A stretch of 64,000 nt of DNA from a virus (IMGVR_UViG_3300046784_000021:4794-68793); one strand, 5' to 3'. Shown: positions 5,746 to 48,355, counted from the first letter of the stretch. Translations and numbers: made by a program. The notes: generated by a model from the letters alone, not told the origin.

Positions 5746-5811
5746 GGTGGCTGCTCCGGGGCGTGGGTGGCCGGGCCCGCGGGTGGTGCAGGCCCGGCCG
5801 GTCGGGTGGGG

Positions 5812-6000
5812 TCAGTTGAAGCGGCGGCGATCGCGCTCTTCCCACTGCTCGGCCTTGGCGGCGGCGAGTGCGACGCCTTGGTGGTGGCGCTCGCGACGTT
5901 TGCGTGCGGCTTTGGCAGTGGCGGATTCGCGGTCGGCGTACTTTGTGGCCGCGAGCTCGCGGTCGCGGGCGGGGCTGAAGAAAAGGTCGCGGAGCTTCAC
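5812..6000 (-). CDS. Small basic hypothetical protein
   Basis: GTGA overlap; VKLRDLFFSPARDRELAATKY. Confidence 0.55.
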   Translation of the reverse strand: MKLRDLFFSPARDRELAATKYADRESATAKAARKRRERHHQGVALAAAKAEQWEERDRRRFN

Positions 6001-6143
6001 CGGTCGTCCTCGGGCTGTTGTTCGGTTTGGCGGAGTTCTTCGCAGCGGGCTGCGGCTGTGGGGCCGGGTCGGGCTGCGAGGATCTCGGCGATTTCCTGCC
6101 AGGTGACGTCGCCGTGCTGCTGCTTGGGGAGGTAGCCGCTCAT
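5997..6143 (-). CDS. Small hypothetical protein
   Basis: ATGA overlap with upstream ORF. Confidence 0.5.
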   Translation of the reverse strand: MSGYLPKQQHGDVTWQEIAEILAARPGPTAAARCEELRQTEQQPEDDR

Positions 6144-6328
6144 CGCATGCCGCCTTGGGCGCTGGCGATGGTGAGGGCGAGCTGGTCGCGTGCTGCTCCG
6201 GCTGCCGTGTCGGGGTCGCGCTGCTGGTAGTCGGCGGCGCATCGGTCCACGGTGGCGGGTTGGTCGAGGATGCTGTGGCCGAGCGGGGTGCTGGGCGGCG
6301 TGGTGGGCGCGCAGATACGATCGGGCAC
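6140..6328 (-). CDS. Small hypothetical protein
   Basis: CAGGAG RBS before GTG (VPDRICAP...). Confidence 0.55.
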   Translation of the reverse strand: MPDRICAPTTPPSTPLGHSILDQPATVDRCAADYQQRDPDTAAGAARDQLALTIASAQGGMR

Positions 6329-6360
6329 GTTCGTCTCCTGTGTACGCAGGTGGCGGATTT

Positions 6361-6472
6361 CCCGGCCCGTGTGCAACCGCGGGTCGGGGTTGAGGCCCTG
6401 CCGGCCGTGCAACCGACCGGCAGGGCCGCTTTCATCAGCCCCGATCTCGTGTGCAACCACGAGGTCGGGGCT
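6361..6472. repeat. Three tandem stem-loops sharing loop TGCAAC
   Basis: Stems of 11, 14 and 15 bp (GU/mismatch allowed); loops at 6372-6377, 6408-6413, 6452-6457. Confidence 0.85.
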
Positions 6473-6500
6473 TTGTGCTGCGGTACAGACACTAGAACAC

Positions 6501-6520
6501 GACTTGCCATGTGGCAAGTC
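6501..6520. promoter_or_regulatory. Perfect inverted repeat, candidate operator
   Basis: GACTTGCCA-TG-TGGCAAGTC in a divergent intergenic region. Confidence 0.6.
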
Positions 6521-6530
6521 AGAGGGGATG

Positions 6531-6809
6531 ATGGTGCAAGACGGGTCGAACAAAGAACAGGAGGTGCCGGACTTGGTGACCTTCCGAGAAGCCGCCCGCC
6601 GCGTGACATCAGAAAAGATCGCGCCGTCTATGACTCACCAGCGGGTGTCTCAGCTCAGCCGGGACGACCCAAACTTCCCACCGGTCCAAGTGGTCGGCCG
6701 CTCGAAGGTCATCGACTGGAACCTTGGTCGGCCGTACTTCGTGGCACACGCCGCAAAGGCTGCTCAGCGGGACAGTCGACGACGGCAGGACACGGCGACC
6801 GACGAGTAG
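6531..6809 (+). CDS. Small HTH (Xis/AlpA-like) DNA-binding protein
   Basis: LVTFREAARRV...THQRVSQLSRDDPNFPPV. Confidence 0.65.
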   Translation: MVQDGSNKEQEVPDLVTFREAARRVTSEKIAPSMTHQRVSQLSRDDPNFPPVQVVGRSKVIDWNLGRPYFVAHAAKAAQRDSRRRQDTATDE

Positions 6810-6962
6810 CCGGACAGCAGAACGGCCGGGCGGACTCCTACATCCACCCGGCCGAGAACCAGCGGGATCCAGCCCGCTGATCAACACCCACTGAGAAAGG
6901 TGCCGCACGATGGTACCCACATTTGTCACGCTCGGCTGCGCCGCCCCGGCGGTGGCTTCCCG

Positions 6963-7859
6963 GTGATCGAAAACCTGCGCGGGCGCAGCACGGAGACGAA
7001 GTACGGCCGGATCCCCCTGTGGCTCTACGAGACCGGCGTGCCGCTCCAGGCCATCGCTGCGTACGGCTGGCTACACGGCCGCTACGGGCACTACGAGCGC
7101 GTCATGCCCAGCTACAAGACCTTGGCCAAGGAGCTTGGCGTCAGCAAGGGCAGCGCCGTGGCTTACGTCAAAGCGCTGATGTCCGTCGGCGCGCTGCGGG
7201 TCGAGACGTCCGGCGCGGCGGCCCAGAAGCCGAACGAGTACGTCATCGCCTTCAACGAGCCCTTCGAGGTGGTGGAACAGCAGGCGACAGCCGGTCAGCA
7301 TGCTGACCCGGTCAGCCAGTTGGTACGAAGGGGTCAGCGGGCTGACCGGAGGGGTCAGCCAGTTGGTCACGAAGAAGACGTTCTTAAAAAGACAGAAGAC
7401 TCTCTCTCCTCGCCGTCACCAAGCGCGCCACCCGCACCTCCCGCAGCCAGCAGCGAGAGAGAGACGATTGCTACGCCCCACAACAGCAGCGAGGCACACC
7501 AAGCCCTCGCCGCCTACGAGGAAGCCCTCGGCGGCACAGCCCTGCCCGCCGTCCGCCGCCAGCTCCTCGCCGACGCAACCGAGCTGCTGACCGCCCGACC
7601 AGCCTGGTGGGTCATCGACCGCGCCCGGGAGCTCCCCCGGTACGGCAGCAGCCTGTCGAAGCACGCGGCGATGTCCCGCGCGCCGCTCGCCCGCCCGCAG
7701 CACGCCGGAACGGTCGCCGCCGCGCCGGGGGACGGCCTGCCGCCGTGGTGCGGGCACTGCGCCGACGAAGAGCCCGCAGCCCGCCACAACACCCGACTGC
7801 GCACCATCAACGGCGCGCCCTGCCCGGCCTGCCACCCCGACGCCCTCGCCGCCGCCTGA
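6963..7859 (+). CDS. Replication initiator-like protein (N-terminal wHTH), module 2
   Basis: MPSYKTLAKELGVSKGSAVAYVKAL HTH; internal iteron-like repeats; directly upstream of dnaB; GTG start overlaps stop of an 18-aa ORF at 6910-6966 (track start 6900). Confidence 0.7.
   Translation: MIENLRGRSTETKYGRIPLWLYETGVPLQAIAAYGWLHGRYGHYERVMPSYKTLAKELGVSKGSAVAYVKALMSVGALRVETSGAAAQKPNEYVIAFNEPFEVVEQQATAGQHADPVSQLVRRGQRADRRGQPVGHEEDVLKKTEDSLSSPSPSAPPAPPAASSERETIATPHNSSEAHQALAAYEEALGGTALPAVRRQLLADATELLTARPAWWVIDRARELPRYGSSLSKHAAMSRAPLARPQHAGTVAAAPGDGLPPWCGHCADEEPAARHNTRLRTINGAPCPACHPDALAAA
7293..7368. repeat. Four 16-bp iteron-like repeats GGTCAGC-N4-TG(A/G)(C/T)(C/A)
   Basis: Copies at 7293, 7310, 7332, 7353; copies 1 and 3 palindromic. 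Confidence 0.7.
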
Positions 7860-14170: not shown

Positions 14171-16044
14171 CAGGCGTCCTTGGGGTAGTTGACGGTGCGA
14201 CCGTCGAGTGCGGCGCGGATGCAGGCGATCGCGTGGGCTTGCGGGATGTCGCTGAGGCCGATGGTGGTGGACCAGCGGCTGGCGGTGGCCTCGGCGACCC
14301 GTAGACGCTGCTCGGCCTTCTCGGCCTTGGCCTTCCAGGTTTCGCGTCCGGCGGCGAGCTGCTTCATTCGCCGGTCCCGCACGGCGAGCACGGCGTCGAG
14401 CAGCGGTGCAGGACTGGCTGCGTCCGGGTCGTCGATGAGGAGTGAGTGGATCATGCGTAGCGCCGCCGCGCCTTGGACGCACAGCTCGTGCGTGGGGTCC
14501 ACCGGGTGGCAGCAGATCCATTCGGCCGTGACGTGGTGCTTGGCCGCTTGCCACAGGAATGTCGCGTACTGCTCGCGCAGCCCGGCATCCGGGGCGGTCG
14601 TGCGTCGCGTCACCTTGCGCACCGGCGGGTTGCCGCTGGCGAGCAGCTCGTTGATCGCGGCGACGGTCTCCGGGGCCAGTGGTGCGTTCACCGCGTCCCG
14701 GTAGGCGTGATCGGCATCCGGGGCGCTGCCGTGGTCGGCGTGCTGCATGACCATGGCGAGGAGCCGCTCGCGGACACCGCAACCGTCAACCCGCGGAGCA
14801 CCGACGGCCAGATCATCCGCGTACTCCCGCACGTCGGCGGCCAGCCCCTCGTAATCGGCTCGGAGCGCGTCGTGCTGGTCGGGATGCACGCACGCATCCG
14901 AATGCCCATCGCCCGGGACAGCCACCTCCACCGGCGTGCCCTCGGCCAGCATTTTGTCGAACTCGGCCTCGGTGACGTCCTCATCGTCGAGGATCCCGTC
15001 GAGCATGTCGCGCAGCACCGCGGCTTGTGCCCGGTCGAGGGTGATACCGCCTACCTCTCGGCCGTCGCCGTCCAGCCAGGGGATGCGCACGGTGTCGCCA
15101 GCAGCGTCGACGGTCTCCGCCCACGGGTATGCGGGCGGTTCGCTGTCCTCGGCGGGTAGCCCGTCCTCACCAACCAGCATGTGGCCGTGCTGGAGGTACC
15201 AGACGTCCGCGTACCCGAGCGTGCCGCCCTGGCAGGCCATCTGCGGCGGGCAGGACAGGGCGGCGCCAGGGCGGGCGAGGCAGAGGCACAGGTGCCAGTG
15301 GTTCGGGCCGTGATGGACGGGAGTCTGGCATTCGGTCCCGGGCAGGTGGTGCGGGTGCGAGCAGTTCGGGCAGGCGGTCTGATCGGTCACGGTCACTCCT
15401 GGTGGCTGGTGCGGGCAGTCGGGGTCGGTCTCCGGCGTGGCGTCGAGGAGCCGCCCGGGGTGCTCGTGCACGTAGGCGACGACGTTGCGGGGCAGGACGA
15501 GAGGCGGCCGAGTGACGTGCTTCTCGCCTGCCTCGAACACGGCCTCCACCTCGGCCGGGTCCTCGTCCGGCTCGTTGAAGGTCACCCGGCCGGAAGCGGA
15601 CGCTGCAGGGGGCCCGGCCACCAGTTGCGGGCCCATCCCCGCAGCTGCTGTCCATTCGTCGGCGACGTCGGAGTAGGCGGCGAACTCTTCGCTCAAGCGC
15701 TTCGTCCTCTCCTTGATCACTTTGGCGGCACCGCCAAAGTGAAGCCCGCGCACGTGTTGCCGTATCCGGTCGTACTTCTGTTCGGTGGTGTGCCCGTCCC
15801 ACTGGGCGCGCGGGTCGTCCGGCTCGACGCGCTCGACGTGCGCGAACAGGTCGGCGTCGCGAGGCGCGATGTGCCAGGACATCTGCTGGTCGTCGGCGGC
15901 GAGGTACACGATCTGCCAGCCCGGCTCGTCCACGTCGGGCGCGGGCGTGATCACGGCCGGGTAGACGGCGGCGAGCCAGGCGACAAGGTGCGCGCGCTCG
16001 CGGTACGCGGCGTCAAGCTGCTGCTCGGGCGTGGGGTCAGTCAT
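14170..16044 (-). CDS. Large mosaic hypothetical protein
   Basis: 624-aa ORF, coupled to both neighbours, several Cys/His patches. Confidence 0.65.
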   Translation of the reverse strand: MTDPTPEQQLDAAYRERAHLVAWLAAVYPAVITPAPDVDEPGWQIVYLAADDQQMSWHIAPRDADLFAHVERVEPDDPRAQWDGHTTEQKYDRIRQHVRGLHFGGAAKVIKERTKRLSEEFAAYSDVADEWTAAAGMGPQLVAGPPAASASGRVTFNEPDEDPAEVEAVFEAGEKHVTRPPLVLPRNVVAYVHEHPGRLLDATPETDPDCPHQPPGVTVTDQTACPNCSHPHHLPGTECQTPVHHGPNHWHLCLCLARPGAALSCPPQMACQGGTLGYADVWYLQHGHMLVGEDGLPAEDSEPPAYPWAETVDAAGDTVRIPWLDGDGREVGGITLDRAQAAVLRDMLDGILDDEDVTEAEFDKMLAEGTPVEVAVPGDGHSDACVHPDQHDALRADYEGLAADVREYADDLAVGAPRVDGCGVRERLLAMVMQHADHGSAPDADHAYRDAVNAPLAPETVAAINELLASGNPPVRKVTRRTTAPDAGLREQYATFLWQAAKHHVTAEWICCHPVDPTHELCVQGAAALRMIHSLLIDDPDAASPAPLLDAVLAVRDRRMKQLAAGRETWKAKAEKAEQRLRVAEATASRWSTTIGLSDIPQAHAIACIRAALDGRTVNYPKDA

Positions 16045-16343
16045 CAGCTGGTCTCCTTGGGCTGTTCGAGGCGGGCGGGCAGGGTGATCTCGTCCAGGAG
16101 CAGCAGTCCGAGGCGCAGCGCGACGGTGGAGGCGTGCGTGCGGTCGGCAACGCCGAGCTTCCGGTAGGTCTTCGCGAGCAGCGAGTTGACCGTGTCCGGG
16201 CTGACGCCGAGCTGGCGGGCGATGGCCCGGTTGGTGTGACCGTTGGCCGCGAGGCGAAGGAACTGGAGCTCACGGCGGGTGACGGGGTACCGGGGCACGG
16301 CCGGGTTTCTGGGGCCGCGGTTGACGGCGGCGGGCGCGGTCAT
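16044..16343 (-). CDS. LuxR/GerE-type HTH regulator
   Basis: TRRELQFLRLAANGHTNRAIARQLGVSPDTVNSLLAKTYRKLGV. Confidence 0.85.
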   Translation of the reverse strand: MTAPAAVNRGPRNPAVPRYPVTRRELQFLRLAANGHTNRAIARQLGVSPDTVNSLLAKTYRKLGVADRTHASTVALRLGLLLLDEITLPARLEQPKETS

Positions 16344-16714
16344 GCCGTCCACCGCCTCGTGGGTATGCCAGCGGCTTCCGCCAGGTCGGCGCAGCCCGTC
16401 GCACCCCGGCTGCTGTTGCGGATGAACGCGAGGCAGATGTCCGCGCCGAGGTCGACCATCGCCTTGTTCCGGAGCGGCCCGGCGGCACGCCCGTTCCCGC
16501 GCCAGCGCGCGGGGTGCATCTCCTCGGTCAGCCCGATGATCCTGTGGCGGACGGTCCAGCGGGAGGCGATGGCGTCTGCGCCGGTCGGGCACGCGCCGTG
16601 AACGATGACCGCGGGCACGTTCTGGTAGACGGCCATGGCGAGCGCGCTTTCGACGGTGAGCTCGTCGTCCCAGTCGCGGGAGCCGGTGACGAGGATCCGG
16701 TACGGCGCGGTCAC
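16340..16714 (-). CDS. SLOG-family protein (DUF2493/YspA-like)
   Basis: ILVTGSRDW, IVHGACPTGAD, AAGPLRNKAMV. Confidence 0.85.
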   Translation of the reverse strand: MTAPYRILVTGSRDWDDELTVESALAMAVYQNVPAVIVHGACPTGADAIASRWTVRHRIIGLTEEMHPARWRGNGRAAGPLRNKAMVDLGADICLAFIRNSSRGATGCADLAEAAGIPTRRWTA

Positions 16715-17076
16715 CGCTGTGCCTCCTCGCCGAGGACGACGCGGGCGGCGGCCTTGGCCTCGTTTGAGGCGCTGCGGTGCCCGAACTCGGCGAGCGTGTA
16801 CCGCTCCTGCCGCGCTTCACGCTCCAGCCAGTCGGCGACCGCCAGGCCTACGAGCGGGTGCATGGCGGCGATGTACGCGGCGTCGGAATCAGAGCCGGTC
16901 TCGCCATACTCGCCGGTCCAGGTGATCCAGTCAGCGTCGTTGACGCTGCCGACGCGGTGGCCGTAAGGGATCGAGGCGTCTGCAATCCACGGTCCTGGAG
17001 TAGTGGCGGTGGCGAGGGCGCGGAGTTTGTCGGCTGCGGCCTGGAGCAGCTCGGCGGCGGTACGGGTGTCGGTCAT
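16711..17076 (-). CDS. Phage hypothetical (Ead/Ea22-like N-terminus)
   Basis: ATTPGPW...DAAYIAAMHP. Confidence 0.65.
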   Translation of the reverse strand: MTDTRTAAELLQAAADKLRALATATTPGPWIADASIPYGHRVGSVNDADWITWTGEYGETGSDSDAAYIAAMHPLVGLAVADWLEREARQERYTLAEFGHRSASNEAKAAARVVLGEEAQR

Positions 17077-17209
17077 CTGTGGGTCTCCGTGGGCGTGTGG
17101 CGGGTTTTCAGGTGGCGGGTGGGGGGATTCGTCGCACTGGGGCGTCAGAGGCGCTCAGGCGGGCGTACACGCGTTCTGCGCATGCGGGTCCTTCGGGTTT
17201 GGTTGCGGA

Positions 17210-17533
17210 TCAGGCGGCGTCTTGGGCGGTTCGGTCCTCGGAGCGCCAGCGGTGGACGGTCCGCGGAGCGACGCAGACGATGCGGGCGATCTCAGCGGCC
17301 GGCAGTCCGATGGCGGTGAGCCGACGGGCGATGCGGCGCTGTTCGAGGCGAGTGAGCCCTCCGACGGCGCGGCGTTCACGGACGACGGTGTCGATGTCGT
17401 GGTCGTCTGCGGTCTGGTCGCCGTGGTGGGGGTCGCCGTGGCGGCGGATGCGGTTGTTGTGCATGTGGCAGACGCTGCGTCTGGGGGCCGCGGGTTTGGT
17501 GCAGTCGCGGATGCGGCAGGGGCGGGCGGTCAT
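17210..17533 (-). CDS. Zn-binding + HTH protein
   Basis: CxxxxC...CxxH then LPAAEIARIVCVAPRTVHRWR. Confidence 0.7.
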   Translation of the reverse strand: MTARPCRIRDCTKPAAPRRSVCHMHNNRIRRHGDPHHGDQTADDHDIDTVVRERRAVGGLTRLEQRRIARRLTAIGLPAAEIARIVCVAPRTVHRWRSEDRTAQDAA

Positions 17534-28574: not shown

Positions 28575-29942
28575 ATGCCCTACGTGGAGGCGCGCGGCAA
28601 CTCGGTCCGCGTCAAATGGTGGGGCGGCGAGTACAAGCTCGGGCCCGACGGGAAGCCGACGAAGGCGAAGAGGTACGAATCGGCCTCCGGCCCCGCGCCC
28701 GGCGTCAAGTTCCAGGATGAGGACGAGGCGTATACGTACGGCCTGGACCGCGAATACGAGGTTCGCCACAACAAGGCCGTGCCGCGGGCGAACTCGGCCA
28801 CGCTCATGGGCGAGTACGTGTGGATGTGGTTCGAGGCGGCCGACCTCAGGACGAACTCCGAGAAGACCTACCGGTCGATGCTGAAAGCGGTCGTCGAGCC
28901 GTACTGGGGGCAGCGGCCGGTCGGCGACATAACGCCGCTGGAATACGACTTCTGGAAGAAGCAGGTCAAGAAGAGGTACTCGGTCAACTACGCGGGCCAG
29001 CTCCTCGGCCTCTTCCGCATGCTCATGGAAGACGCCGTCCTCAAGTACAGGATGCGCACCGAGTCGCCCATCATCGAGCAGCGCCGCCGCGGCCGGTACG
29101 TGAAGAAGCAGACCCGTCGGGTGAAGCGGGAGTTGCCCATCGCAGACGTGCATCAGCTCGCCTCGAACGCCCACCACGTGTGGGGGTACGCGGGCTGGAC
29201 CTACATCTGGACCATCGCGTTCACCGGCATGCGGCCCCCGGGCGAGATGTACGGCCTCCAGCGCGGGTTCTCCTCGCCCAGCTGGCCAGCAGCCGACCCG
29301 GTCCGTGAGCGCCGGGAGCAGGCTCAGGAGCGCTACCGGACCGGGCTGCGCGCGCTGCGGGTGCAGCACCAGCTGTACTACGCGGAGAGCAGGCCGACGC
29401 TGGCCGGTCCGAAGTACGACTCGTACCGAACGCTGGTGATCCCGCCCTTCCTGCACCACATGCACGACGCGCTGCTGCGGTCTCACGACCGGCCTTGGGT
29501 ATTCATCTCCAAGACAGGCAAACCGCTGCTGGGCACGCAGTTCGCCCGGGACTACTGGCACCCGATGCGGGACGGCTCGCCTGAGCGGAAGGGCCGGAAG
29601 GGCCTGGAGCGGCCGGAGCTGAAGCCGGTGGAGGCGATGGCGGGTCAAGACATCTACCGGCTGCGGCATTGGCACCGGGAGCTCCTGGACGAGCCGGGCG
29701 CGGACATCGCGACGGTGGCGGCGGAGGCCCGGATGGGGCATGAGATGCCGGGCATGGAGGGCGTTTACAGCAAGGTGACGATCTCCATGGAGGAGCGTAT
29801 CGTCGAGTATCTGCAGGGGGTTTGGGAGAAATTCCTCGCGTCGGGTCCGTGGATCCCACCCTTTCCCACAGCTCTCCCAGTTGATCTTTCTGAGGGCACG
29901 TTTCCGCAGCTCAGCGGGCTTCCCGTCCTTGGTGAGATTTGA
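28575..29942 (+). CDS. int: Tyrosine integrase
   Basis: FTGMR catalytic Arg, RLRH, MGH...VY catalytic Tyr; N-terminal arm-binding region. Confidence 0.93.
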   Translation: MPYVEARGNSVRVKWWGGEYKLGPDGKPTKAKRYESASGPAPGVKFQDEDEAYTYGLDREYEVRHNKAVPRANSATLMGEYVWMWFEAADLRTNSEKTYRSMLKAVVEPYWGQRPVGDITPLEYDFWKKQVKKRYSVNYAGQLLGLFRMLMEDAVLKYRMRTESPIIEQRRRGRYVKKQTRRVKRELPIADVHQLASNAHHVWGYAGWTYIWTIAFTGMRPPGEMYGLQRGFSSPSWPAADPVRERREQAQERYRTGLRALRVQHQLYYAESRPTLAGPKYDSYRTLVIPPFLHHMHDALLRSHDRPWVFISKTGKPLLGTQFARDYWHPMRDGSPERKGRKGLERPELKPVEAMAGQDIYRLRHWHRELLDEPGADIATVAAEARMGHEMPGMEGVYSKVTISMEERIVEYLQGVWEKFLASGPWIPPFPTALPVDLSEGTFPQLSGLPVLGEI

Positions 29943-30714: not shown

Positions 30715-30926
30715 CGCTGACGCTCCCGCTGCGTCCACTCCTCGCGCCGCTCCTCGGCGTTGAGTACGTACGGGCGTACGAGGAGCGACGTCTCGCCGTC
30801 TATCACCGCGGCCGCGGAACGGCGGCGTGCAGCTCGGGCGGCACGGGCAGCGCGAACCGCAGGCAGGTGCGGCGGCTTCCACGCAGGTCTCACTCGTTCG
30901 GGGTATTCGGCGGTAGGGTTCGCCAT
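30711..30926 (-). CDS. Small hypothetical protein
   Basis: GAGAG-type RBS; LLVRPYVL motif. Confidence 0.6.
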   Translation of the reverse strand: MANPTAEYPERVRPAWKPPHLPAVRAARAARAARRRSAAAVIDGETSLLVRPYVLNAEERREEWTQRERQR

Positions 30927-31112
30927 GTCGACCTGCTCTCTCAGGTTGGCCGCACCCCCGGACATGGCCGTCGCGGGGGTTTTCACATTGAGCATCGGGC
31001 CGCTGAGACTGTGGCGGCAGCGTGTGACAACCACCACCGTGGTTACCGGATTCACACCCTGTGTGAACTGTCTGTCGTTACGCTTCACACACAACGCAAA
31101 GCGGGGATTCTC

Positions 31113-32453
31113 ATGGAACCCAACACTCTTCTTGACGCCCTCCTCGACGAGGCAGGCATGTCTCATGCCGGACTGGCGTCGCGCATCAACAGGGCAACCA
31201 AGAGCAGCTCGAAAACCACGCGGTACGACCATGCGTCGGTCGGCCGTTGGCTGAAGGGTCAACGCCCGCGAGGCCAAATCGCCGAACTGATCTGCGTCAT
31301 CCTCTCCGAGAAGCTGAACCGCCAGCTCGCCCTCGAGGACATCGGCATGGGCACCCTGGGCTCAACAGGCTCTCCAGCCGCACCGCTCGACGGATTCATC
31401 GAGCGCTCAACCGCACTTTGGCGAGGAGACCAACAGGGCCGAACCGACGTCCAGCAGGCCCCCGTGATCACTGGCCTGCGCGCCGTCGGGCCTGTCTGGG
31501 AATGGGAAAACCCACCGGACGATGTGAACGTCTCACGCGCCGGTACGCCCCACGTGGGGCTCAGCGACGTCGAAGTGCTGCGCACAGCCAGGCGGCACTA
31601 CGAGCAGATGTACCGCAGGGCTGGCGGAGTCGCAACGAAAGACCGCATCGTCCGGTTCTTGAACCTGGAGGCATCACCACGCCTTCGCGGCTCCTACGCG
31701 GATGTCACAGGTCGGGAACTCCACCGCGCTGTCGGTGGACTCGCCGCCGTCGCCGGCATTTGCGCGTACGACTCCGACGTTCAGGGCCTCGCGCAACGCT
31801 ACTTCCACCAGTCGCTCCGCCTAGCCAAGGCCAGCGGGGATCGCGGGTTCGGCGGGTACGTCATGGCCTTGCTGGTGAATCAGTCCATCTTCATGCGGGA
31901 CTACCGGCAGGCGGTGGCCTTCGCCGAGTCGGGGCTGCGCACCGCGGGAAGCCACATCTCGCAGGCGCTCGCCACCGACCTGTACTCGATGCAAGCGAAG
32001 GCGTACGCGCGCATGGGAGATCAGCACAGTGCCCACCGCTGCATGAGCCTGGCCGAGACCGCCGCAGGGCGAATCCGCCGCGAGGAGGAACCCGATGAGC
32101 TGGGCTACGTTCAGCCTGGCCTCGTCGAGGCGCAGCTAGCCGAAGCCTGCATGAGCCTAGGCGACATGGCACCAGCACAGGAGTACGCCGTCGAAGCCGT
32201 GCGCACCCAGGCTCATGCCCGCGGGCGCGTACATCGCCTGGCGACGCTGACTAACGTCGAACTGCGCAGCGGCGAAGCAGAGCGCGCAGCAGCGGCGGCC
32301 GTCGAGATGGTGGATCTCGCGCAGGGCATGGAATCGCGGCGGCTCCGGGACCGCTTCGTGTCCACCCGTGCGGCCCTGGTTGAGCACGACTCTGCTGTCA
32401 CCGCGGACGCAGCAGAGAAGATCGATGAGACCCTCCGCGTGCCCCTGCCCTAG
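31113..32453 (+). CDS. NsdA-like regulator (N-terminal HTH, TPR-like C-terminus)
   Basis: PNTLLDALLDEAGMSHAGLA...YDHASVGRWLKGQRPRG; AQRYFHQSLRLAKASGDR helical repeats. Confidence 0.8.
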   Translation: MEPNTLLDALLDEAGMSHAGLASRINRATKSSSKTTRYDHASVGRWLKGQRPRGQIAELICVILSEKLNRQLALEDIGMGTLGSTGSPAAPLDGFIERSTALWRGDQQGRTDVQQAPVITGLRAVGPVWEWENPPDDVNVSRAGTPHVGLSDVEVLRTARRHYEQMYRRAGGVATKDRIVRFLNLEASPRLRGSYADVTGRELHRAVGGLAAVAGICAYDSDVQGLAQRYFHQSLRLAKASGDRGFGGYVMALLVNQSIFMRDYRQAVAFAESGLRTAGSHISQALATDLYSMQAKAYARMGDQHSAHRCMSLAETAAGRIRREEEPDELGYVQPGLVEAQLAEACMSLGDMAPAQEYAVEAVRTQAHARGRVHRLATLTNVELRSGEAERAAAAAVEMVDLAQGMESRRLRDRFVSTRAALVEHDSAVTADAAEKIDETLRVPLP

Positions 32454-32484
32454 TCTGACCCGACAGGCGACGGAGGGTAGGCCC

Positions 32485-33015
32485 ATGCAGTGGAAGAACC
32501 TCGGCGAGCACACGGTGTACGAAAACCCGTGGTTGCGGGTGAATCTTGCCGACGTCGAGTTGCCCGGCGGCCGGCACCTCGACCACTTCCTGTTGCGGCA
32601 GCGGCCGGTAGCCCTGGCCACGGCGGTGAACGACGACAACGAGGTGCTGCTGCTGTGGCGGCACCGGTTCATCCCTGACTCATGGGGCTGGGAGATCGCC
32701 GCGGGTGTCGTCGAGGAGGGGGAAGACTTCGAGGCCGCGGCGGCGCGCGAGATGCTGGAGGAAACGGGCTGGCGGCCGGGGCCGCTTTCGCACCTGCTCA
32801 CGGTGGAGCCGTCGAACGGATTGTCCGATGCCCAGCACCACGTCTACTACTCGGAGAGCGCCGAATACGTCGGCCATCCGGAGGATGATTTCGAGTCCAG
32901 CCGCCGCGAGTGGGTGTCCCTGAAGGCGGTGCCCGACTTGATCGCACGCGGCGAGATCCGCTCAGCGAACGCCGTCGCGGCGCTGCTCATGCTTCACTAC
33001 CTGCGTCTGGGCTGA
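32485..33015 (+). CDS. NUDIX hydrolase
   Basis: Nudix box GVVEEGEDFEAAAAREMLEETGW; GGAGG RBS. Confidence 0.93.
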   Translation: MQWKNLGEHTVYENPWLRVNLADVELPGGRHLDHFLLRQRPVALATAVNDDNEVLLLWRHRFIPDSWGWEIAAGVVEEGEDFEAAAAREMLEETGWRPGPLSHLLTVEPSNGLSDAQHHVYYSESAEYVGHPEDDFESSRREWVSLKAVPDLIARGEIRSANAVAALLMLHYLRLG

Positions 33016-33204: not shown

Positions 33205-33209
33205 CCGCC

Positions 33210-33255
33210 GCACACGACGAAGAGCCCACCGCCCGGCGCGCGGCAGTGGCGGTGG
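33210..33255. repeat. Boundary repeat/hairpin A
   Basis: GCACACGACGAAGAGCCCACCGCCCGGCGCG; near-identical copy at 34672. Confidence 0.75.
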
Positions 33256-34650: not shown

Positions 34651-34671
34651 CCGCGGCCGACAGCACCGCCC

Positions 34672-34722
34672 GCACGCGACGAAAAGCCCCCCGCCCGGCG
34701 CGAGGCCGAGACAGGGGGCTTC
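34672..34722. terminator. Boundary repeat B / bidirectional terminator
   Basis: GCACGCGACGAAAAGCCCCC...GGGGGCTT between convergent genes. Confidence 0.75.
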
Positions 34723-34732: not shown

Positions 34733-35356
34733 CTACGGCGTGCCGGTGTCCGGTCGGCCGAGGAGCCCGATCAGCTCGGCCAGGTCGCCCGGGGACATGT
34801 ACTTGCGAAGGGAGCGGGCAACCGACTCGGGGGAGGTGAGGACCACCCGGGGCTTGCGGATGCCGGCTTGGCGGGCGGCTGCGTTCGCGGTGATCTCGCC
34901 GGAAACGACCCGCTCGGCGAGGTCGGGGTGGTCCCGCTTGAGACGGGCCACTACACGCTCTCTCGTGTCGCTCCGAGCCATCGGAATAGAGTTCGTGTCA
35001 CGCTCTCTATTCCGGCCGTTCCCGATCTCGCCGTGGGCCGCAGCGGGCAAAACCTCCACGTCGTACAGGTGTTGCACCCGCCCGCGTAGATCGTCGTTGC
35101 TGCCACACAGCGCCAGCAGCTGACCCAAACGGCTACCCAGACCAGCAGGCGGCTTCCCCTCAACAAACGCCCGGAACGAGGCGTACTCGACATGACCGCC
35201 CGGCGGGGGCGCGTCGAACTCCCGCCACGCCTCCTCATCCAGCAGCCGCCGTACCAAACCCGGAAGAGCGGACATGACATCCGCCCCCGTCGTTGTCGAC
35301 GAGATAACCTCGCGGACCACTGTCCAATGACCCCGCGCGCTCACAGTGAGTTCCAC
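34733..35356 (-). CDS. Hypothetical protein with C-terminal HTH-like segment
   Basis: RLKRDHPDLAERVVSGEITANAAARQAG; overlaps helicase 3' end by 16 nt. Confidence 0.75.
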   Translation of the reverse strand: MELTVSARGHWTVVREVISSTTTGADVMSALPGLVRRLLDEEAWREFDAPPPGGHVEYASFRAFVEGKPPAGLGSRLGQLLALCGSNDDLRGRVQHLYDVEVLPAAAHGEIGNGRNRERDTNSIPMARSDTRERVVARLKRDHPDLAERVVSGEITANAAARQAGIRKPRVVLTSPESVARSLRKYMSPGDLAELIGLLGRPDTGTP

Positions 35357-37389
35357 ATTTCGCGGACGACCCCGATCGCTTTATCCAACTCCGGGACATC
35401 CGTGCGGCTCAGGTCGCTGATATCGGCTCGTCGCTTCAGCTCTGCCCACACGTGCTGCACCATCGTCCCGTAATCGCCGCCCTGTGCGCGCAGCCGCTTT
35501 GCGGCGAGCTGGTTCACCACCTTGTTCAGGGATGCCCGGCGCGCCTTCGCCCTAGCCTCCCATGAGCCCACAGATGCGGACTGCCCCCGCTGCTCCGGCA
35601 CATCCGACGACGGCTGAGCGGAACCGAGACCGAACGAGACACCTGTGCGCTGCATCGCCTCCATGACCCTCAGTACGACACCCGGCGCATCGCCTGACTC
35701 CGCAGAGATCCTGTTCACCTGCTCGTGGTCGAACGTGCCAGAACCCGGCAGCAGAAACCCGGCCGCCTCGCCCGTCGCCCCCTGGAACTGGTCGCCGAAC
35801 AGACTGCCCTGACCGCCGCCCTCTCCACCCTTCTTCGGCTCACTGTCATCGTCGGCATCCAGCCACGCCATCACGCCGTCGCCGATTTCACGGGTCACCG
35901 CGCCGGCCAGCGCTTCGATACCCTCTCCCTTCGGGACGAACATGTACGCGGTTTGGTCAACGTCTTCCGGTAGATCCTCCCTGACGCGCACGAAGCGGCC
36001 GAGGACCTGCCGGAAGAACAACTCGGTGCGCTTGTTCGTGGCGTATACGCCGACGCGCAGCTGCGGGATGTCGACGCCCTCCGACACCATCGCTACAGCC
36101 ACGAGCCAGCGATCCCGGCTCTCCCCGAATGCCTTGATGACGCCTCGGGCCCGCTCGGAGCTGTCTAGGCCGTTGGAGTCCTTCGACGCGGCGACGGGCA
36201 CCTCCGGCACACCGGTGACGCGGGCGAGCACCTGCGCGGCGGCGTGCGCATGGTCGGTGTCGAGGCACACCACGAGACCCTTGGCACCCGGGTCACCCTC
36301 TGCTCGCACGGAGGCGAGTCGGGCGTCTGCCGCCCGCAGTGCGGCTTCCAGCCACTGGCCTGCGGGGTCGAGGACCATCCGGTCGGCCTTGCGCCGGAGG
36401 TTCTTGGCGAGCTTGTCCTGCGAGAGACGGACCGTGCGGTCCTTGAAGTCCTTCGCGTCGAACCATGAGACATCGCTGTCGTACATCTCGAAAACAGCTG
36501 GCCGGACGGGTGAGGGCTTCTCGGAGAGGGCAACGCCGTAGGAATAGTCGAACCCGGCTGGGAACGGGCCGAGACGATCATCATCGGTGAACCGCACCCA
36601 TCCGGCCTTCTCATGGCCAGACGGGTAATAGGCGGCAAACGGAATCCTCGCCTTGTCGCTGCGGAACGGCGTTCCGGACAGACTGAGCCTGCGCTCGCAC
36701 ACACTCAGCGCATCCTCGGCGGCCTTGCCCCACGCGCCCTCGTCACCGAGGTGATGGACCTCGTCGAGGATCACAAGGGTGCGTTTGCGGCTGTTCAGGA
36801 TCCGATGGTAGGTGGGGTTGGCCGCAAGCGAAGAGTAGGTGATCGCCCAGCCCTGCACGGGTTTCCCGTCCTTGGTGGCAATCTCTCCGCGCCACTCGTG
36901 TGCGAGCCGCTTATCGATCTTGTCGTTCATCGTCCCGGAGTCGATGAGGATGCCGTGCATCTTGAACGTGTTGGCCCACTGCGCACGCAAGGTGAAGTTG
37001 GGGACGACGATGAGGATGCGCTCGATGATGCCGTCACGGAGAAGGTCGGCTGCGACGAAGGTAGACGCGTGGGTCTTTCCCGCGCCAGGGCAGGCAACGC
37101 AGAGGAAGTCCGCGCCAGTGTGGGCGTGGTACTTGGCGATGAAGCGGTTCTGCCAGGCGCGGGGAGACAGGAGCATCGTCGAGCCTTTCTTTAGGTTGCA
37201 GGTGGAGCAGAGTGCTTGGCCGTTGATGACGTCGGTTGGGCCGCCTGCTGAATAGGGCGTGATGTGATCGGCGTGCCACCCGGGCCGGAGTTCGATGCCG
37301 CACTTTTCACAGCGTCCGTCGGCGGCGAGGTAAAGGGCGGCGCGCTCGGATGAGTTGAAGCGGCGTCTCGCAGGATCGGCGGCGGTCAC
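35341..37389 (-). CDS. HNH endonuclease fused to SF2 (Res-like) helicase
   Basis: N-terminal CEKC...HADHITPY...GGPT...NGQALCSTCN; ACPGAGKT, ILDEVHH, LSGTPFR, MVSEGVDIP, QVLGRFVR. Confidence 0.92.
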   Translation of the reverse strand: MTAADPARRRFNSSERAALYLAADGRCEKCGIELRPGWHADHITPYSAGGPTDVINGQALCSTCNLKKGSTMLLSPRAWQNRFIAKYHAHTGADFLCVACPGAGKTHASTFVAADLLRDGIIERILIVVPNFTLRAQWANTFKMHGILIDSGTMNDKIDKRLAHEWRGEIATKDGKPVQGWAITYSSLAANPTYHRILNSRKRTLVILDEVHHLGDEGAWGKAAEDALSVCERRLSLSGTPFRSDKARIPFAAYYPSGHEKAGWVRFTDDDRLGPFPAGFDYSYGVALSEKPSPVRPAVFEMYDSDVSWFDAKDFKDRTVRLSQDKLAKNLRRKADRMVLDPAGQWLEAALRAADARLASVRAEGDPGAKGLVVCLDTDHAHAAAQVLARVTGVPEVPVAASKDSNGLDSSERARGVIKAFGESRDRWLVAVAMVSEGVDIPQLRVGVYATNKRTELFFRQVLGRFVRVREDLPEDVDQTAYMFVPKGEGIEALAGAVTREIGDGVMAWLDADDDSEPKKGGEGGGQGSLFGDQFQGATGEAAGFLLPGSGTFDHEQVNRISAESGDAPGVVLRVMEAMQRTGVSFGLGSAQPSSDVPEQRGQSASVGSWEARAKARRASLNKVVNQLAAKRLRAQGGDYGTMVQHVWAELKRRADISDLSRTDVPELDKAIGVVREMWNSL

Positions 37390-37463
37390 CGGGTCGGACC
37401 ACTTCCGGAGGTGCTCCCGCTGTTGCCTCCGGGCGCGGGCAGGTTAGTGTTGTCCTGTGCCAT
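37386..37463 (-). CDS. 25-aa leader ORF coupled to HNH-helicase
   Basis: AGGAGG RBS; MAQDNTNLPAPGGNSGSTSGSGPTR; TGA overlaps helicase GTG (GTGA). Confidence 0.6.
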   Translation of the reverse strand: MAQDNTNLPAPGGNSGSTSGSGPTR

Positions 37464-37640
37464 GGAGCTTCTCCTCCTGGTCATTTGCCCTCCGCGGGGT
37501 CGTGGCAGATTTCCCGCGTGAGGGCGCACTCGTCTAAGGCGCGGATTGATGTCAATCCGACCACCCGTCAGATTACTCCGTTCGTGTGACGTACCTGCGT
37601 TCTCGTGCACAACTCAGTCAGTGCGGTGCGGATCTGACGT

Positions 37641-37684
37641 GCATGACGAAGCGCCCCGCCCCTGCCGAAGCAGAGACGGGGCGC
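37641..37684. terminator. Terminator after lysis cassette (boundary family)
   Basis: GCATGACGAAGCGCCCCG..CTGC-CGAA-GCAG..CGGGGCGC. Confidence 0.7.
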
Positions 37685-37692
37685 GCGCTGTG

Positions 37693-38319
37693 TCAGAGAC
37701 GGCGTCGGTCTGCGGGTAGTGCCGCCATGGACGGGCCCGGCTCGGGGTGAGAGGGCTTCGGGTCGTCAGCGGGTGGTGCTCCGTCTCGCCGGCACACCAG
37801 CGCGTCGGGATCCCAGCTCGGGGCCTGCAACGAGTAGCCGTCGGGGCAGGCAGGGCCGGGCGCTCCGTCCGCCCCGTCGGTTCCGTCCCGTCCGTCTTGG
37901 CCAGGTGGCCCGGCGGGTCCAGTTGGGCCGGGGACAGTCGAATCGCTGCCGGCCTTCCCAGCGGGGCCAGGAAACGTGGAGTCGTTGCCCGGTTCCCCTT
38001 TCGGTCCGCGGGGACCTTGAGGCCCGGCCGATGGTTCGGGTGTGGGGGCATCCGCGCCGGGCGGCCCACTGGGTCCACGGGGACCGCGGGGCCCGACCAC
38101 GGACTGGCCCGGTTCGCCGCGGCTGCCCGGCGGGCCGGCGACTGGCCTCCCGCCGAGCAGCTGCACCTGTCGCGCAAGCGAGTCCCGCGCCTGGTTCGCG
38201 GCGCGGAGGTCCTGGCTGAGGCCCTGCACTGTCAGGACCATCCACGTGAACCCGGCCAACGCCGCGGCTGTCACGACAGCGAACAGGAGATCGCCGCGCC
38301 GATGTGCGATTCCTTTCAT
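37693..38319 (-). CDS. Collagen-like repeat membrane protein of lysis cassette
   Basis: N-terminal TM, coiled coil, Gly-X-Y repeats. Confidence 0.85.
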   Translation of the reverse strand: MKGIAHRRGDLLFAVVTAAALAGFTWMVLTVQGLSQDLRAANQARDSLARQVQLLGGRPVAGPPGSRGEPGQSVVGPRGPRGPSGPPGADAPTPEPSAGPQGPRGPKGEPGNDSTFPGPAGKAGSDSTVPGPTGPAGPPGQDGRDGTDGADGAPGPACPDGYSLQAPSWDPDALVCRRDGAPPADDPKPSHPEPGPSMAALPADRRRL

Positions 38320-38908: not shown

Positions 38909-39751
38909 TCAGTCCTTGACGTCGAAGCCGTGGCGCTTGCCCAGCTTGGTGAGGGAGGTCTTTCCGGGGATGCCGTCAGCTGCGGTCCCGGTGTAGCCGA
39001 GGCGGTGCTGCCACGCGGCGTAGGCCCGGACGGTGGCGGTGCCGAAATGCCCGTCCGCGAGGCGCTTCTCGAGGAGTCCTTCGGCGACGAGGGCCTGCTC
39101 GACGGTCTTCGTGCCCGAGTACGACACGGGGGTGCCGCTCTTCGGCGGGTCCTGGCGGGCGGCGGCGACGAGTCGGGAGAGATCCACCACGGGCCGCGGC
39201 GGCACCCGCGGGCGGGCGGGCTCGCTGGTCTGCGGCTGCTCGGCCGACTCGGGCCGTGGTGCGCCGGCCTGCACCCATGCGTACAGAGGTCCGCCGGGGC
39301 AGGCGGTGGCGTAGCCGTCGCGGTGGCCCTTGATCTCGTCCCCGGCGCCGTTGCGGCGGAGGAGGTCGATGCCGTCGCGGATCGCGTCGAGCATGGCGTC
39401 GGTGGGCTGGGTGAGCCCCTCGCTGCCGACGAGGCCGACGATGGCGTAGTGGGCGCGGTTGAGGTCCTGGTTGCCGTTGGCTCCGGTGCGGTGGCCGATG
39501 CCGCGGCCTTCGAGCAAGAATCCGTGTGGGCAGGCGGCGTAGTTGTACGCCACGTCGCTGTAGTTCTCGACGGTGTTGGCGAGGTGGCTCTTGCGGATCG
39601 CCTGCCACTCTCTGAGGCACAGGTCGTGGTCCTCGAGCAGCTCCCGGCTAACCGCCGTGCCCTCGTAGTGGACCTTGACACCGTGGGTGGTGGCTTGGAG
39701 CGGGGCGGCCGACGCGGGCCAGCCGAGATCCTCGCGGGTGATCAGCTTCAT
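38909..39751 (-). CDS. Endolysin: N-acetylmuramoyl-L-alanine amidase + peptidoglycan-binding domain
   Basis: VKVHY, DVAYNY, LEGRG, GHRD...TACPG; DGHFGTAT...AADGIPG. Confidence 0.9.
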   Translation of the reverse strand: MKLITREDLGWPASAAPLQATTHGVKVHYEGTAVSRELLEDHDLCLREWQAIRKSHLANTVENYSDVAYNYAACPHGFLLEGRGIGHRTGANGNQDLNRAHYAIVGLVGSEGLTQPTDAMLDAIRDGIDLLRRNGAGDEIKGHRDGYATACPGGPLYAWVQAGAPRPESAEQPQTSEPARPRVPPRPVVDLSRLVAAARQDPPKSGTPVSYSGTKTVEQALVAEGLLEKRLADGHFGTATVRAYAAWQHRLGYTGTAADGIPGKTSLTKLGKRHGFDVKD

Positions 39752-46933: not shown

Positions 46934-47151
46934 TGGGTCAGCAGCTCAACACCGAGGACGCGCTGGAAGCGTTCCGCAAGCGGCATGGTGAGCTCGCCGA
47001 CGAGAACGTCCTGCTCCGCGGCTACGCGGCAGGGCTGGAGCGGCGGGTCACGGAGCTGGTCGAGGAGAACGAACGGCTGAAGGGGGCCCAGCAGCAGCCT
47101 GCCGAACCCCCTCAGCCGTTCACGGGCATGCCGCCGGACGCGCCCGTGTAG
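46933..47151 (+). CDS. Small coiled-coil protein
   Basis: Last gene of operon; heptad-like LERRVTELVEENERL. Confidence 0.65.
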   Translation: MGQQLNTEDALEAFRKRHGELADENVLLRGYAAGLERRVTELVEENERLKGAQQQPAEPPQPFTGMPPDAPV

Positions 47152-47152
47152 G

Positions 47153-47365
47153 TCACATCGGGGTTGCGGTGACGTCCATCGCGTAGCGGGTCGCAGTGAG
47201 GCTGTTGATGTCCTCTCGGCTGGACACGGCCTCCTTCACTGCGTCGACGATGGCCTGCTGGTCCACCCCGAACGCCTCCTCCTCGATTTTAACGGTGACA
47301 GTGGCGGTGCTGTCGTTGGTGGTGCGGGCCACCACCTGGATGTACGGGTAGTCGGGTGCAGCCAT
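47153..47365 (-). CDS. Small tail-module protein
   Basis: AAGGAG RBS; last gene of tail operon. Confidence 0.65.
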   Translation of the reverse strand: MAAPDYPYIQVVARTTNDSTATVTVKIEEEAFGVDQQAIVDAVKEAVSSREDINSLTATRYAMDVTATPM

Positions 47366-47377
47366 GAAGAGGTCTCC

Positions 47378-48355
47378 TTACGCTTCGCGATACCAGCCCT
47401 GGATGGTGAGGCTGGCACCTGCCTTGAGGTCGACGCCCTGGACGTTGCCTGAGCCGTCTCCGTCGGCGTCGACGACGCGGAGACGGTCGCTTGTGGCCCC
47501 GGAGCCGCCGGGAAAGAACACGGCCTCGCCGCCGCGGAGGGTCCCGGATCCGGTGCCGTTCACGCCGATCGTTTCGCCGTGCAGGACAAGGGCTTGCCGG
47601 GTGGTCCTGTCCACGCTGGAGGGCATGTCGACGGCTACGAGGCCGGAGCCGGTGCCTGCGACGTTGACGACGAGGTACACCACCACGAACACGATCTTGC
47701 CGAGTTTGTAGTAGTAGCCGGTGCGGGTCGTCCACGTCACGGATCCGCCGTTGGTGACCGTTGGCGTGTATGTCGTCCACGTCGTGGCACCCACGGTCAG
47801 GCCGCCCGTGACCGAGACGCCGCTGGAAACGCTGAGGCTTCCGGTCAGGGTGAGGGTGGATGTTCCGCTGCGGGTGAGGGTGACGTCGGTTGGCGTGGAT
47901 CCGCCCGGCCCCCAGCTGTGCGCGCCGTCTGTCTCAAGGAGGAAGCGGCTGGCGGTGTCGCCGGTGACGCGGGTGGAGATGACGTCGTCGCCGGATGCGG
48001 CGGTGAGGACGGCGAGATAGGCGTTGGATCCCGACGCGCCGAAGTTGATCTGCTTGCCGGAGGCGATCTTCAGGTTGCTGTTGAACGTCGCCGAGCTGTT
48101 GGGGATTTCCACCCAGGATGCTGAGGCGGGCGACGTGCCGTTGGAGAAGTACGTCCGGTAGGACGTGTCGGACTCCATGATCGGTTTGCCGCTGTACGGG
48201 GACGACGGCCGGGTCGTGGAGGTGCAGGCCTGGTAGCCGACGGCGAGGTCGAGCTTGTCGAGGTTCTGGCCTATGTCCTGGGTGTAGTTGACCAGCTCGG
48301 AGCCGTCCGACTTGGACTTGTACAGCGCGAGCCTGCTGGTAGACGGGTCAGGCAC
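47378..48355 (-). CDS. Minor tail / fibre protein
   Basis: Ser/Thr/Gly-rich; C-terminal WTTYTPT...GYYYKLGKIV fibre-like domain. Confidence 0.8.
   Translation of the reverse strand: MPDPSTSRLALYKSKSDGSELVNYTQDIGQNLDKLDLAVGYQACTSTTRPSSPYSGKPIMESDTSYRTYFSNGTSPASASWVEIPNSSATFNSNLKIASGKQINFGASGSNAYLAVLTAASGDDVISTRVTGDTASRFLLETDGAHSWGPGGSTPTDVTLTRSGTSTLTLTGSLSVSSGVSVTGGLTVGATTWTTYTPTVTNGGSVTWTTRTGYYYKLGKIVFVVVYLVVNVAGTGSGLVAVDMPSSVDRTTRQALVLHGETIGVNGTGSGTLRGGEAVFFPGGSGATSDRLRVVDADGDGSGNVQGVDLKAGASLTIQGWYREA

Follow-up and report, generated by a model that had tools for sequence, protein, structure and literature searches.

The cassette described here occupies positions 34,733 to 37,463 of the window, a 64,000-nucleotide stretch taken from a linear IMG/VR virus record of 68.8 kb (IMGVR_UViG_3300046784_000021, bases 4794-68793), itself a fragment estimated to be ~82% complete. 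Within 2.7 kb it encodes a pair of proteins, a 682-residue fusion of an HNH nuclease to a superfamily 2 (SF2) helicase and a 207-residue partner; the partner is obligatory and belongs to a large unnamed family, as the linkage data below firmly support. We propose, with a confidence somewhat short of even, that the cassette specifies a phage DNA-processing helicase-nuclease whose nuclease is controlled by the partner. The cassette is accessory and is not the replicative helicase.

In this model the product of the first gene would be an ATP-driven, RadD/XPB-like SF2 translocase or helicase with an N-terminal zinc-finger HNH. The product of the second, translationally coupled gene would most likely dock on the helicase-nuclease through its N-domain, and its helix-turn-helix (HTH)-like C-domain would most likely contact DNA or a conserved factor. 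The complex would act in the phage's own DNA transactions during lytic growth, loading on replication and recombination intermediates that are branched or broken, and moving along them with ATP. The HNH would nick or resolve these intermediates, and the partner would gate or target the nuclease. We favour this reading because most phage copies of the pair lie among recombination and replication genes, because the nearest folds are repair helicases and because the core has a universal housekeeping paralogue. Should the pair be a recombination or repair machine, it would add a fused motor, HNH cutter and regulator to phage junction, fork and end processing, and would provide a handle on the function of a helicase kept by every Streptomyces genome.

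The HNH-helicase and its obligatory partner

The two genes and their domains are placed as follows.

35341-37389, minus strand: HNH-SF2 helicase fusion, 682 residues; the GTG at 37389 is the first start in frame
37180-37311, minus strand: HNH (beta-beta-alpha-Me) domain, residues 27-70; PF01844 at 5.9e-11, with CxxC...CxxC zinc knuckles
35962-37167, minus strand: two-lobe SF2 (ResIII / RadD-XPB-like) ATPase core, residues 75-476, from Pfam ResIII/DEAD/Helicase_C and Foldseek
35344-35961, minus strand: C-terminal region, residues 477-682, in the AlphaFold model a small beta domain and a three-helix bundle with a disordered acidic/Gly linker between them
34733-35356, minus strand: partner, 207 residues, directly downstream of the helicase gene and overlapping it by 16 nucleotides
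35042-35356, minus strand: partner N-domain, residues 1-105, helices and a beta hairpin
34757-34975, minus strand: partner C-domain, residues 128-200, helical and HTH-like, following a disordered linker

An earlier note, made from the sequence alone, had described three open reading frames (ORFs) here, the first a micro-ORF of 25 codons. All three were confirmed on the minus strand, with the GTGA coupling of the first to the second and the 16-nucleotide overlap of the second with the third, and its description of an intact N-terminal HNH with all SF2 motifs agrees with the Pfam matches and with residues invariant in 26 homologues. The HNH domain scores 42.8 bits against the PF01844 cut-off of 21.4, which places it in the HNH family, and it is the sole HNH in the whole record. 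Pfam further finds ResIII (PF04851, 1.6e-13) at residues 75-243 and, weakly, Helicase_C at residues 368-469. Across the 26-sequence alignment (36-83% identity) the HNH residues C27, C30, H39, D41, H42, N56, C61, C64 and N65 are invariant, as are helicase motifs I (PGAGKT), II (DEVHH), III (SGT) and VI (FRQxxGRxxR). Both activities are therefore under selection, and this conservation firmly supports the prediction of an intact nuclease-motor enzyme. The C-terminal region varies between subclades, with an alignment coverage of ~73% in the more distant clade.

The AlphaFold model of the 682-residue protein has a mean predicted local distance difference test score (pLDDT) of 80. Foldseek of the ATPase core returned RadD at the top (1e-14) and XPB-Bax1 next (5e-13), followed by LlaBIII, SauUSI, HsdR, the Pol-theta helicase and UvsW; since repair and restriction folds are both among the top matches, fold alone cannot separate repair from restriction. 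By sequence, the protein matches phrog_16 'DNA helicase' at 4e-30 and shows weak similarity to XPB/RAD25 in lobe 2. Public gene calls for the same contig start late, giving a 611-residue protein without the HNH and a 180-residue partner without its conserved N-terminal helix, and the fusion and the gene overlap are therefore hidden by automated annotation.

Conservation of residues 9-27 among homologues supports the long, 207-residue start of the partner. The partner model has an overall pLDDT of 81, with values in the N-domain mostly at ~90 over residues 30-100 and lower before. The C-domain carries a near-invariant motif, RLKRDxPxLA..V..GE..A..AA...G, and the region of this motif also matches other mobile-element ORFs of ~290-390 residues in Streptomyces genomes. 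It is this motif and the helical AlphaFold model of the C-domain that stand behind the term HTH-like, which the earlier note had used: no match to the partner was found in Pfam, PADLOC, PHROGs, NCBIfam or PDB, a PDB profile search included, and Foldseek against PDB gave nothing at E <= 0.001. The best result of a wide VIA-align comparison (Z 6.9, to CidA and similar helical repeats; root-mean-square deviation 3.1 Å over 80 aligned residues) falls in the background range of the tool. Atlas returned only unnamed, mostly viral clusters, the nearest being 69-81% viral, and a 0.82 lead to DUF3102. A profile search with the family recovered 5,094 clusters at 50% identity at E <= 0.001, and 2,112 at E <= 1e-10, nearly all of them stand-alone proteins of ~190-220 residues. 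The family thus counted has no Pfam entry, no solved relative, no name, and near-perfect linkage to one nuclease-helicase architecture.

The partner exists in two forms, a short one of ~200 residues and a long one of 430-550 residues with the N-domain at its start; among Streptomycetaceae genomes with the partner N-domain, 6 carry the short form and 9 the long. At the loci checked (L032, L034, L046-L048) the long-partner protein is again directly downstream of the HNH-helicase. The long partner gave a 0.94 feature lead to DUF6192. Because the N-domain is common to both forms it is the best candidate for docking, and it is likely the docking domain on the helicase; as judged by comparing the two forms, the C-terminal half is exchangeable. 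Structure prediction of the helicase-partner complex returned 'weak support', with an interaction prediction score from aligned errors (ipSAE) of 0.52 (three runs, 0.49-0.58) against 0.00 for the best control. Of 80 solved complexes 58 pass the mark applied, as do 2 of 110 mismatched pairs, and scores at or below 0.60 hold only 7 of the 80 solved complexes together with both of the passing mismatches. The runs share at least 80% of their contacts, with a partner pLDDT of at least 73; no interface was given, and the prediction is not counted as evidence.

Linkage was assessed on 62 IMG/VR loci found with the helicase alignment. The partner is the next gene in all 30 loci in which both genes were called, and a six-frame hidden Markov model search found a partner ORF on the same strand after each of the 32 HNH-bearing helicases with at least 700 nucleotides of downstream DNA; 30 of these 32 passed the distance window, and the remaining two (L054, L066) differ only by an open frame that reaches further upstream. 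Among helicases scored as lacking the HNH yet followed by a partner, one is truncated at a contig end but still shows the HNH, and in two the HNH is encoded by a small ORF of its own immediately upstream. In these two mid-GC viral contigs the small ORF lies at 2328-2588 (L106) and 1074-1370 (L110), and the split is either a natural form or a frameshift. No partner accompanies the ~17 low-GC relatives without an HNH. Finally, a second, mobile-type helicase copy is present in 17 of 301 Streptomycetaceae genomes, and all 15 genomes with a partner N-domain match fall among these 17. Taken together these figures show that the partner goes with the nuclease-bearing form of the helicase, and the co-occurrence of the two genes that the earlier note had wanted checked therefore holds across genomes.

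A tie of this kind is also what a toxin-immunity or addiction pair would show, in which the partner would neutralise a toxic HNH, in the manner of colicin DNase immunity proteins or two-domain antitoxins, with element stabilisation or abortive infection on partner loss as the outcome. The partner follows the HNH and not the helicase as such, it is translationally coupled and downstream, it is bipartite with a docking-like and an HTH-like domain, and a unique palindrome in the window overlaps a putative -35. We nevertheless consider such a pair unlikely. Many copies of the pair lie inside long operons and lack a separate promoter, so autoregulation is not conserved, and a 680-residue ATP-dependent motor would be an unusually elaborate toxin.

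The pair is common among uncultured actinobacterial phages, and the two genes are adjacent in Saccharomonospora phage PIS136, in a Streptomyces chromosome and in many metagenomic contigs. This phage and its closest relatives have almost nothing in common apart from the cassette, and hence the pair moves as a unit; that it moves between actinobacterial phages, prophages and islands is firmly supported. The helicase core has a different distribution: an HNH-less paralogue is present once in each of 301 of 301 Streptomycetaceae genomes (E ~1e-140 to 1e-154), which bears out the likeness to a widespread actinobacterial family lacking the HNH that had been noted from the sequence, and which is the reason we regard the core as a housekeeping-type helicase. 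This paralogue has ~600 residues (for example L050 6546-8330 and L051 6026-7849), with an IclR-type regulator as the next gene in both genomes inspected. No NCBIfam equivalog names it, and the universal Streptomyces helicase appears uncharacterised.

Genomic context and the function of the pair

Most phage copies of the pair, the closest included, lie in early replication and recombination operons. In the three closest relatives (L037-L039; helicase 75-83% identical, partner 66-68%) the pair is inside co-directional early operons, with RNase_T/WhiB/ParB(DGQHR)-like genes on one side and an initiator-like gene with DnaB, DUF4326 and a methyltransferase on the other. Elsewhere the pair directly follows an exonuclease-sized gene and RecT (L006) or, in a prophage bounded by an integrase, a Sak4-like AAA_24 gene (L040). 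It comes after DnaB in L003, a prophage element of Streptomyces sp. 184, and after PrimPol in L004; in L115 it heads an operon that includes a Rad52-like gene and lies opposite one with initiator, SSB and MazG genes; and in PIS136 it sits in a DNA-metabolism block. Such company has a precedent in Firmicutes phages, where sak4 genes commonly neighbour ResIII/Helicase_C helicases (PMC8093625). We also count in favour of DNA processing the viral share of the nearest partner clusters and the fact that the record, with this single HNH, holds no RusA and no VRR-NUC.

Several observations weigh against a role in DNA processing. In this phage the cassette is post-lysis, behind a strong hairpin and outside any replication block, and neither a RecT nor an AAA_24 recombinase was found in the record. 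The cassette is absent from all 53 phage contigs that have related endolysins, and the post-lysis DNA of every one of them is different. The cassette behaves like cargo, being 75-81% identical between otherwise unrelated phages; among 50,697 isolated phage genomes the family was found only in PIS136; and the second helicase copy of Streptomycetaceae is patchy. As a structural match, RadD is only slightly ahead of LlaBIII, SauUSI and HsdR. The long-partner variant, furthermore, keeps other company: L032 (G105:C1:6496000-6514000) is a ~10-kb island, low in G+C at third codon positions (GC3), with a HamB-like gene and a 290-residue gene, the HNH-helicase with its long partner, and an integrase; a DndB-like gene (L046 12415-13590; PF14072, 7e-28) and a 5-hmdU-DNA-kinase-like (HMUDK-like) gene (L044 7360-8439; PF18723, 9e-116) each lie divergently upstream of an HNH-helicase; and MazG_C, McrB_N, AAA_21, a C5 methylase and the Tn7-like TniQ/TniB occur among 50 scanned neighbours.

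An inter-element conflict system, acting in defence, superinfection exclusion or a restriction-like attack on competitor or host DNA, would better account for where the cassette lies in the window, for its cargo-like spread and for the neighbours of the long variant, and we hold it to be only slightly less probable than DNA processing. The HNH-helicase would here be a translocating effector nuclease, comparable to type I, ISP and IV enzymes, Hna, Nhi and HmaA, and the partner a sensor, specificity factor or safety catch. The combination of a nuclease with an SF2 translocase does resemble restriction enzymes, in fold to LlaBIII, SauUSI and HsdR, and the best PADLOC and NCBIfam similarities, partial as they are, are to the Dnd-associated restriction helicases PbeA and TIGR04095. 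In this phage the cassette, which has boundaries of its own, lies in the variable DNA after the lysis genes, next to a PIN pair and a NUDIX gene; its distribution is patchy with transfer between unrelated phages, and a HamB-like gene shares the L032 island while DndB-like (L046), HMUDK-like (L044), McrB_N, AAA_21, C5 methylase and TniQ/TniB genes neighbour other copies. The partner keeps its N-domain and swaps its C-terminal half, as often seen in conflict-system sensors, and its link to the HNH fits a nuclease that needs a guard.

Against this, no named system was matched and the partner has no PADLOC match; most phage copies, the closest among them, are in co-directional early replication and recombination operons; no methyltransferase or self-marking gene is consistently linked, the partner being the only conserved neighbour; the defence-type neighbours come from the long-partner variant at a handful of loci; and the helicase core has a universal housekeeping paralogue. 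The defence role proposed in the earlier note therefore keeps the variable post-lysis slot and the conflict neighbours of the long variant in its favour, and has the replication and recombination operons of most phage relatives, the repair folds and the housekeeping paralogue against it; it is possible and is not the better supported reading. In its fullest form, which we hold to be possible with some doubt, it would describe an unnamed and very abundant two-component conflict system in which the partner, docked through its conserved N-domain, restrains or aims the HNH-helicase and its C-terminal half, a short HTH in phages and a long one in islands, senses or selects the target DNA, the phages turning it on co-infecting phages or host DNA and the islands using it as defence. 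A conflict system of this kind would be new, abundant and phage-borne, and would come from the phylum Actinobacteria, which is under-represented in the discovery of defence systems.

Two narrower roles were also considered. The pair could be a replication-initiation module in which the partner binds the origin, the HNH nicks and the helicase unwinds from the nick. The pair does adjoin initiator-like genes and DnaB in phages, and it is found in small islands bounded by an integrase (L032), where no further replication genes are obvious. We think this improbable: the motif with which the partner would read DNA hardly varies between very different phages, which is unexpected for origin-specific initiators, the host phages already have initiators, DnaB or PrimPol, and no repeats or iterons were seen at the cassette. 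Least probable of all is a packaging-associated HNH fused to a motor, resembling the terminase-stimulating HNH of HK97-type cos phages. This is the only HNH in the record, and in L004 and L006 the pair is at the distal end of the early region; however, it is never beside a terminase in the loci examined, it lies 25 kb from the head genes here, and the terminase region is missing from the record.

A link to DNA modification is possible through the DndB-like, HMUDK-like and DGQHR/ParB-like neighbours. DGQHR/DndB-like genes are recurrent and not obligatory neighbours; DGQHR/ParB-like genes flank the pair in PIS136 and in L037, L038 and L039. PIS136 (L116, JX006077.1) also has ExsB/QueC-like (7-deazaguanine pathway), NUDIX and FtsK-like genes and IS200/IS605 transposases (15985-17420, 47043-47393), and no integrase is annotated in its first 50 kb.

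Comparison with named helicase-nuclease systems

No named defence system in PADLOC or NCBIfam matches the pair; the earlier note had likewise not recognised the architecture as a named system. In PADLOC the helicase has only partial PbeA matches over lobe 1 (residues 72-244, best 1e-21) and the partner has none; in NCBIfam, TIGR04095 reaches 2.8e-13 over ATPase lobe 1, its 49.7 bits far below the cut-off of 600, and RadD (NF053632) 11.3 bits against 720. Likeness to PbeA and TIGR04095 is thus confined to the helicase lobe and below the family cut-offs, and these systems differ in nuclease type and in the methyltransferase, which is not linked here. The window has no dnd genes, and a DndB-like neighbour occurs in one distant locus only.

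The best structural likeness of the ATPase core is to RadD and XPB-Bax1, and XPB, too, works with a nuclease, the separate Bax1. Neither has an HNH, their partners are unrelated, and the family described here is phage-borne and patchy; with RadD the likeness is structural, the sequence match lying below equivalog level. The universal Streptomycetaceae paralogue matches model positions 70 to ~500-655 and differs in being a chromosomal core gene without the HNH and without a neighbour of the partner family. Among phage recombination SF2 helicases, such as T4 UvsW and the ResIII proteins next to Sak4, the company is the same (single-strand annealing proteins, exonucleases, SSB; PMC8093625), and UvsW is among the folds found, but these have neither a fused HNH nor a partner of this family.

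Hna, Nhi, HmaA and DdmD likewise combine helicase and nuclease in one polypeptide on mobile islands (PMC11232893), yet none needs a conserved partner of this family. The nuclease is C-terminal in Hna, HmaA and DdmD, of the PD-(D/E)xK type in Hna and HmaA, and in Nhi an HsdR-like N-terminal nuclease is joined to an SF1 helicase (DUF2075) (PMC11232893). Hna is a single gene with an N-terminal SF2 helicase and a C-terminal PD-(D/E)xK nuclease, whereas in the cassette the order is reversed, the nuclease is an HNH and a partner is obligatory; no Hna model was among the PADLOC matches, the presence of such a model in PADLOC 2.0.0 being unconfirmed. For the 682-residue protein PADLOC has no significant match to any of the four, HmaA not being listed at E <= 1, and the L032 homologue matches it at 4.9e-06 over the ATPase lobe. 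Nhi is set apart by its SF1 motor, the core here being SF2 by Pfam and by fold.

Hachiman is a two-gene nuclease/helicase system in which one subunit restrains the nuclease (PMC12278908). It differs in having separate HamA (DUF1837) and HamB proteins, where here the HNH nuclease is fused to the helicase, and neither HamA nor HamB is matched by helicase or partner in PADLOC at E <= 1. At L032, positions 3150-7501 hold a Hachiman-like pair, a 290-residue gene and a 1,164-residue HamB-like helicase (PADLOC 6e-55), back-to-back with the HNH-helicase and its long partner.

The ATP-dependent restriction enzymes LlaBIII, SauUSI and HsdR are among the top folds. SauUSI has the same order of an N-terminal nuclease, a motor and a C-terminal domain. 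Type III Res subunits share the ResIII-type SF2 ATPase, but the C-terminal PD-(D/E)xK nuclease of that family has no counterpart here, the last 200 residues being without a nuclease-family match and the N-terminal HNH the only nuclease, and in place of an adjacent Mod methyltransferase the sole conserved neighbour is the 207-residue partner. For the terminase-associated HNH of the HK97 gp74 type, the related loci examined show no terminase neighbour, and the terminase region is outside the record. As the combination of an N-terminal HNH, a RadD/XPB-like core and this partner occurs in none of Hna, HmaA, DdmD, Nhi, Hachiman and type III Res, the pair falls outside the named families and within the class of helicase-nuclease modules.

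The micro-ORF and the surroundings of the cassette

The following features lie around the pair in the window.

37463 (ATG) to 37386 (TGA), minus strand: micro-ORF, 25 residues, with a strong AGGAGG site
37543-37558, minus strand: perfect 16-nucleotide palindrome GGATTGACATCAATCC with a TTGACA hexamer, a single occurrence in the window
37650-37690, minus strand: 15-bp GC-rich stem-loop followed by UUCGUC, read from the sequence, directly after the collagen-like late gene
37693-38319, minus strand: collagen-like membrane ORF, 208 residues, with an N-terminal hydrophobic helix and then long G-x-x repeats
38909-39751: amidase/peptidoglycan-binding endolysin, a lysis gene upstream of the cassette
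40-47 kb, plus strand: sugar-enzyme block
34705-34689: hairpin terminator with a T-run, from a terminator scan, 3' of the partner gene and within the repeat copy 34670-34717
33208-33255 and 34670-34717: 48-nucleotide direct repeat in 81% identical copies, the second including the bidirectional terminator
32368-33015, plus strand: NUDIX hydrolase gene (PF00293, 2.9e-20), convergent with the cassette
30867-32453, plus strand: ORF of up to 528 residues without a Pfam match

The three-gene operon of the earlier note holds for its two large genes, which are tightly linked, and not for the micro-ORF, which is not conserved at the loci examined. The sequence AGGAGGAG lies 6 nucleotides upstream of its ATG, its stop overlaps the helicase GTG (GTGA), and its GC3 of ~0.76 (hand count) is coding-like; with so strong a ribosome site it may well be translated here. 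No related or positionally conserved peptide was found at the homologous loci L003, L005, L032, L034 and L037-L039. A coupled upstream ORF is absent from L003, L005, L032 and L034; L004 has an unrelated coupled ORF of 32 residues upstream of the helicase, and in L038 and L039 the coupled upstream gene encodes a 300-residue ParB/DGQHR-like protein. The micro-ORF is probably a local translational-coupling leader outside the conserved unit. As a third system component it was rejected, since relatives conserve neither the peptide nor the position, and as a remnant of the ParB/DGQHR-like gene of L038 and L039 it was rejected because the C-termini have no similarity.

Upstream, the stem-loop at 37650-37690 is likely a terminator that splits the cassette from the lysis transcript; a fold of 37380-37700 as RNA has z = -3.8 and retains this stem in the centroid structure. 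The collagen-like ORF at 37693-38319 is the final gene of the lysis block, just ahead of this hairpin, and two small ORFs lie between it and the endolysin. The palindrome GGATTGACATCAATCC could serve the cassette as a putative promoter -35 element and operator. No full sigma-70 site came out of the consensus promoter scan. The slot between lysis genes and attachment site (att) in which the earlier note had put the cassette is right as to the lysis genes upstream and the variable post-lysis region; no att was found, and the whole 68.8-kb record has no tyrosine or serine integrase.

Downstream of the cassette, the copies of the 48-nucleotide repeat flank a gene pair on the opposite strand, a PIN gene and, upstream of it, a larger ORF of 271 residues. 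As the copies bracket this pair, they suggest that it arrived as an insertion separating the NUDIX gene from the cassette end and left the repeat as a footprint, and the NUDIX gene at 32368-33015 is probably the original neighbour. NUDIX genes lie within ~3 kb of the helicase in L003, L005, L034, L035 (5e-58 to the NUDIX of the window), L043 and L047, and with seven loci in all they are recurrent and not obligatory.

Over 315 residues the ORF at 30867-32453 shares 23% identity with TPR-like regulators that carry an N-terminal HTH and lie near HNH-helicases in Streptomyces islands (L035, L045, L047), a resemblance by which it is probably a WhiJ-like XRE-TPR regulator. As a third conserved gene of the system it was set aside: its protein clustered with neighbours in four chromosomal loci, but at 23% identity within a highly paralogous family this is likely coincidence.

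The window has a G+C content of ~68%, and its minus strand, read from the right, begins with tail genes, among them one for a 1,548-residue tape-measure protein that most resembles those of Streptomyces phages; the phage is of the Streptomyces type and from soil. The only full-length match is a soil metagenome, which may be the source, and no RNA dataset is listed as containing the sequence. Further from the cassette, a 455-residue ORF (28575-29942, plus strand) has a good coding signal and no Pfam or PADLOC match, and weak homologues of it (25-26%) lie post-lysis, on the opposite strand, in phage contigs L124 and L164.

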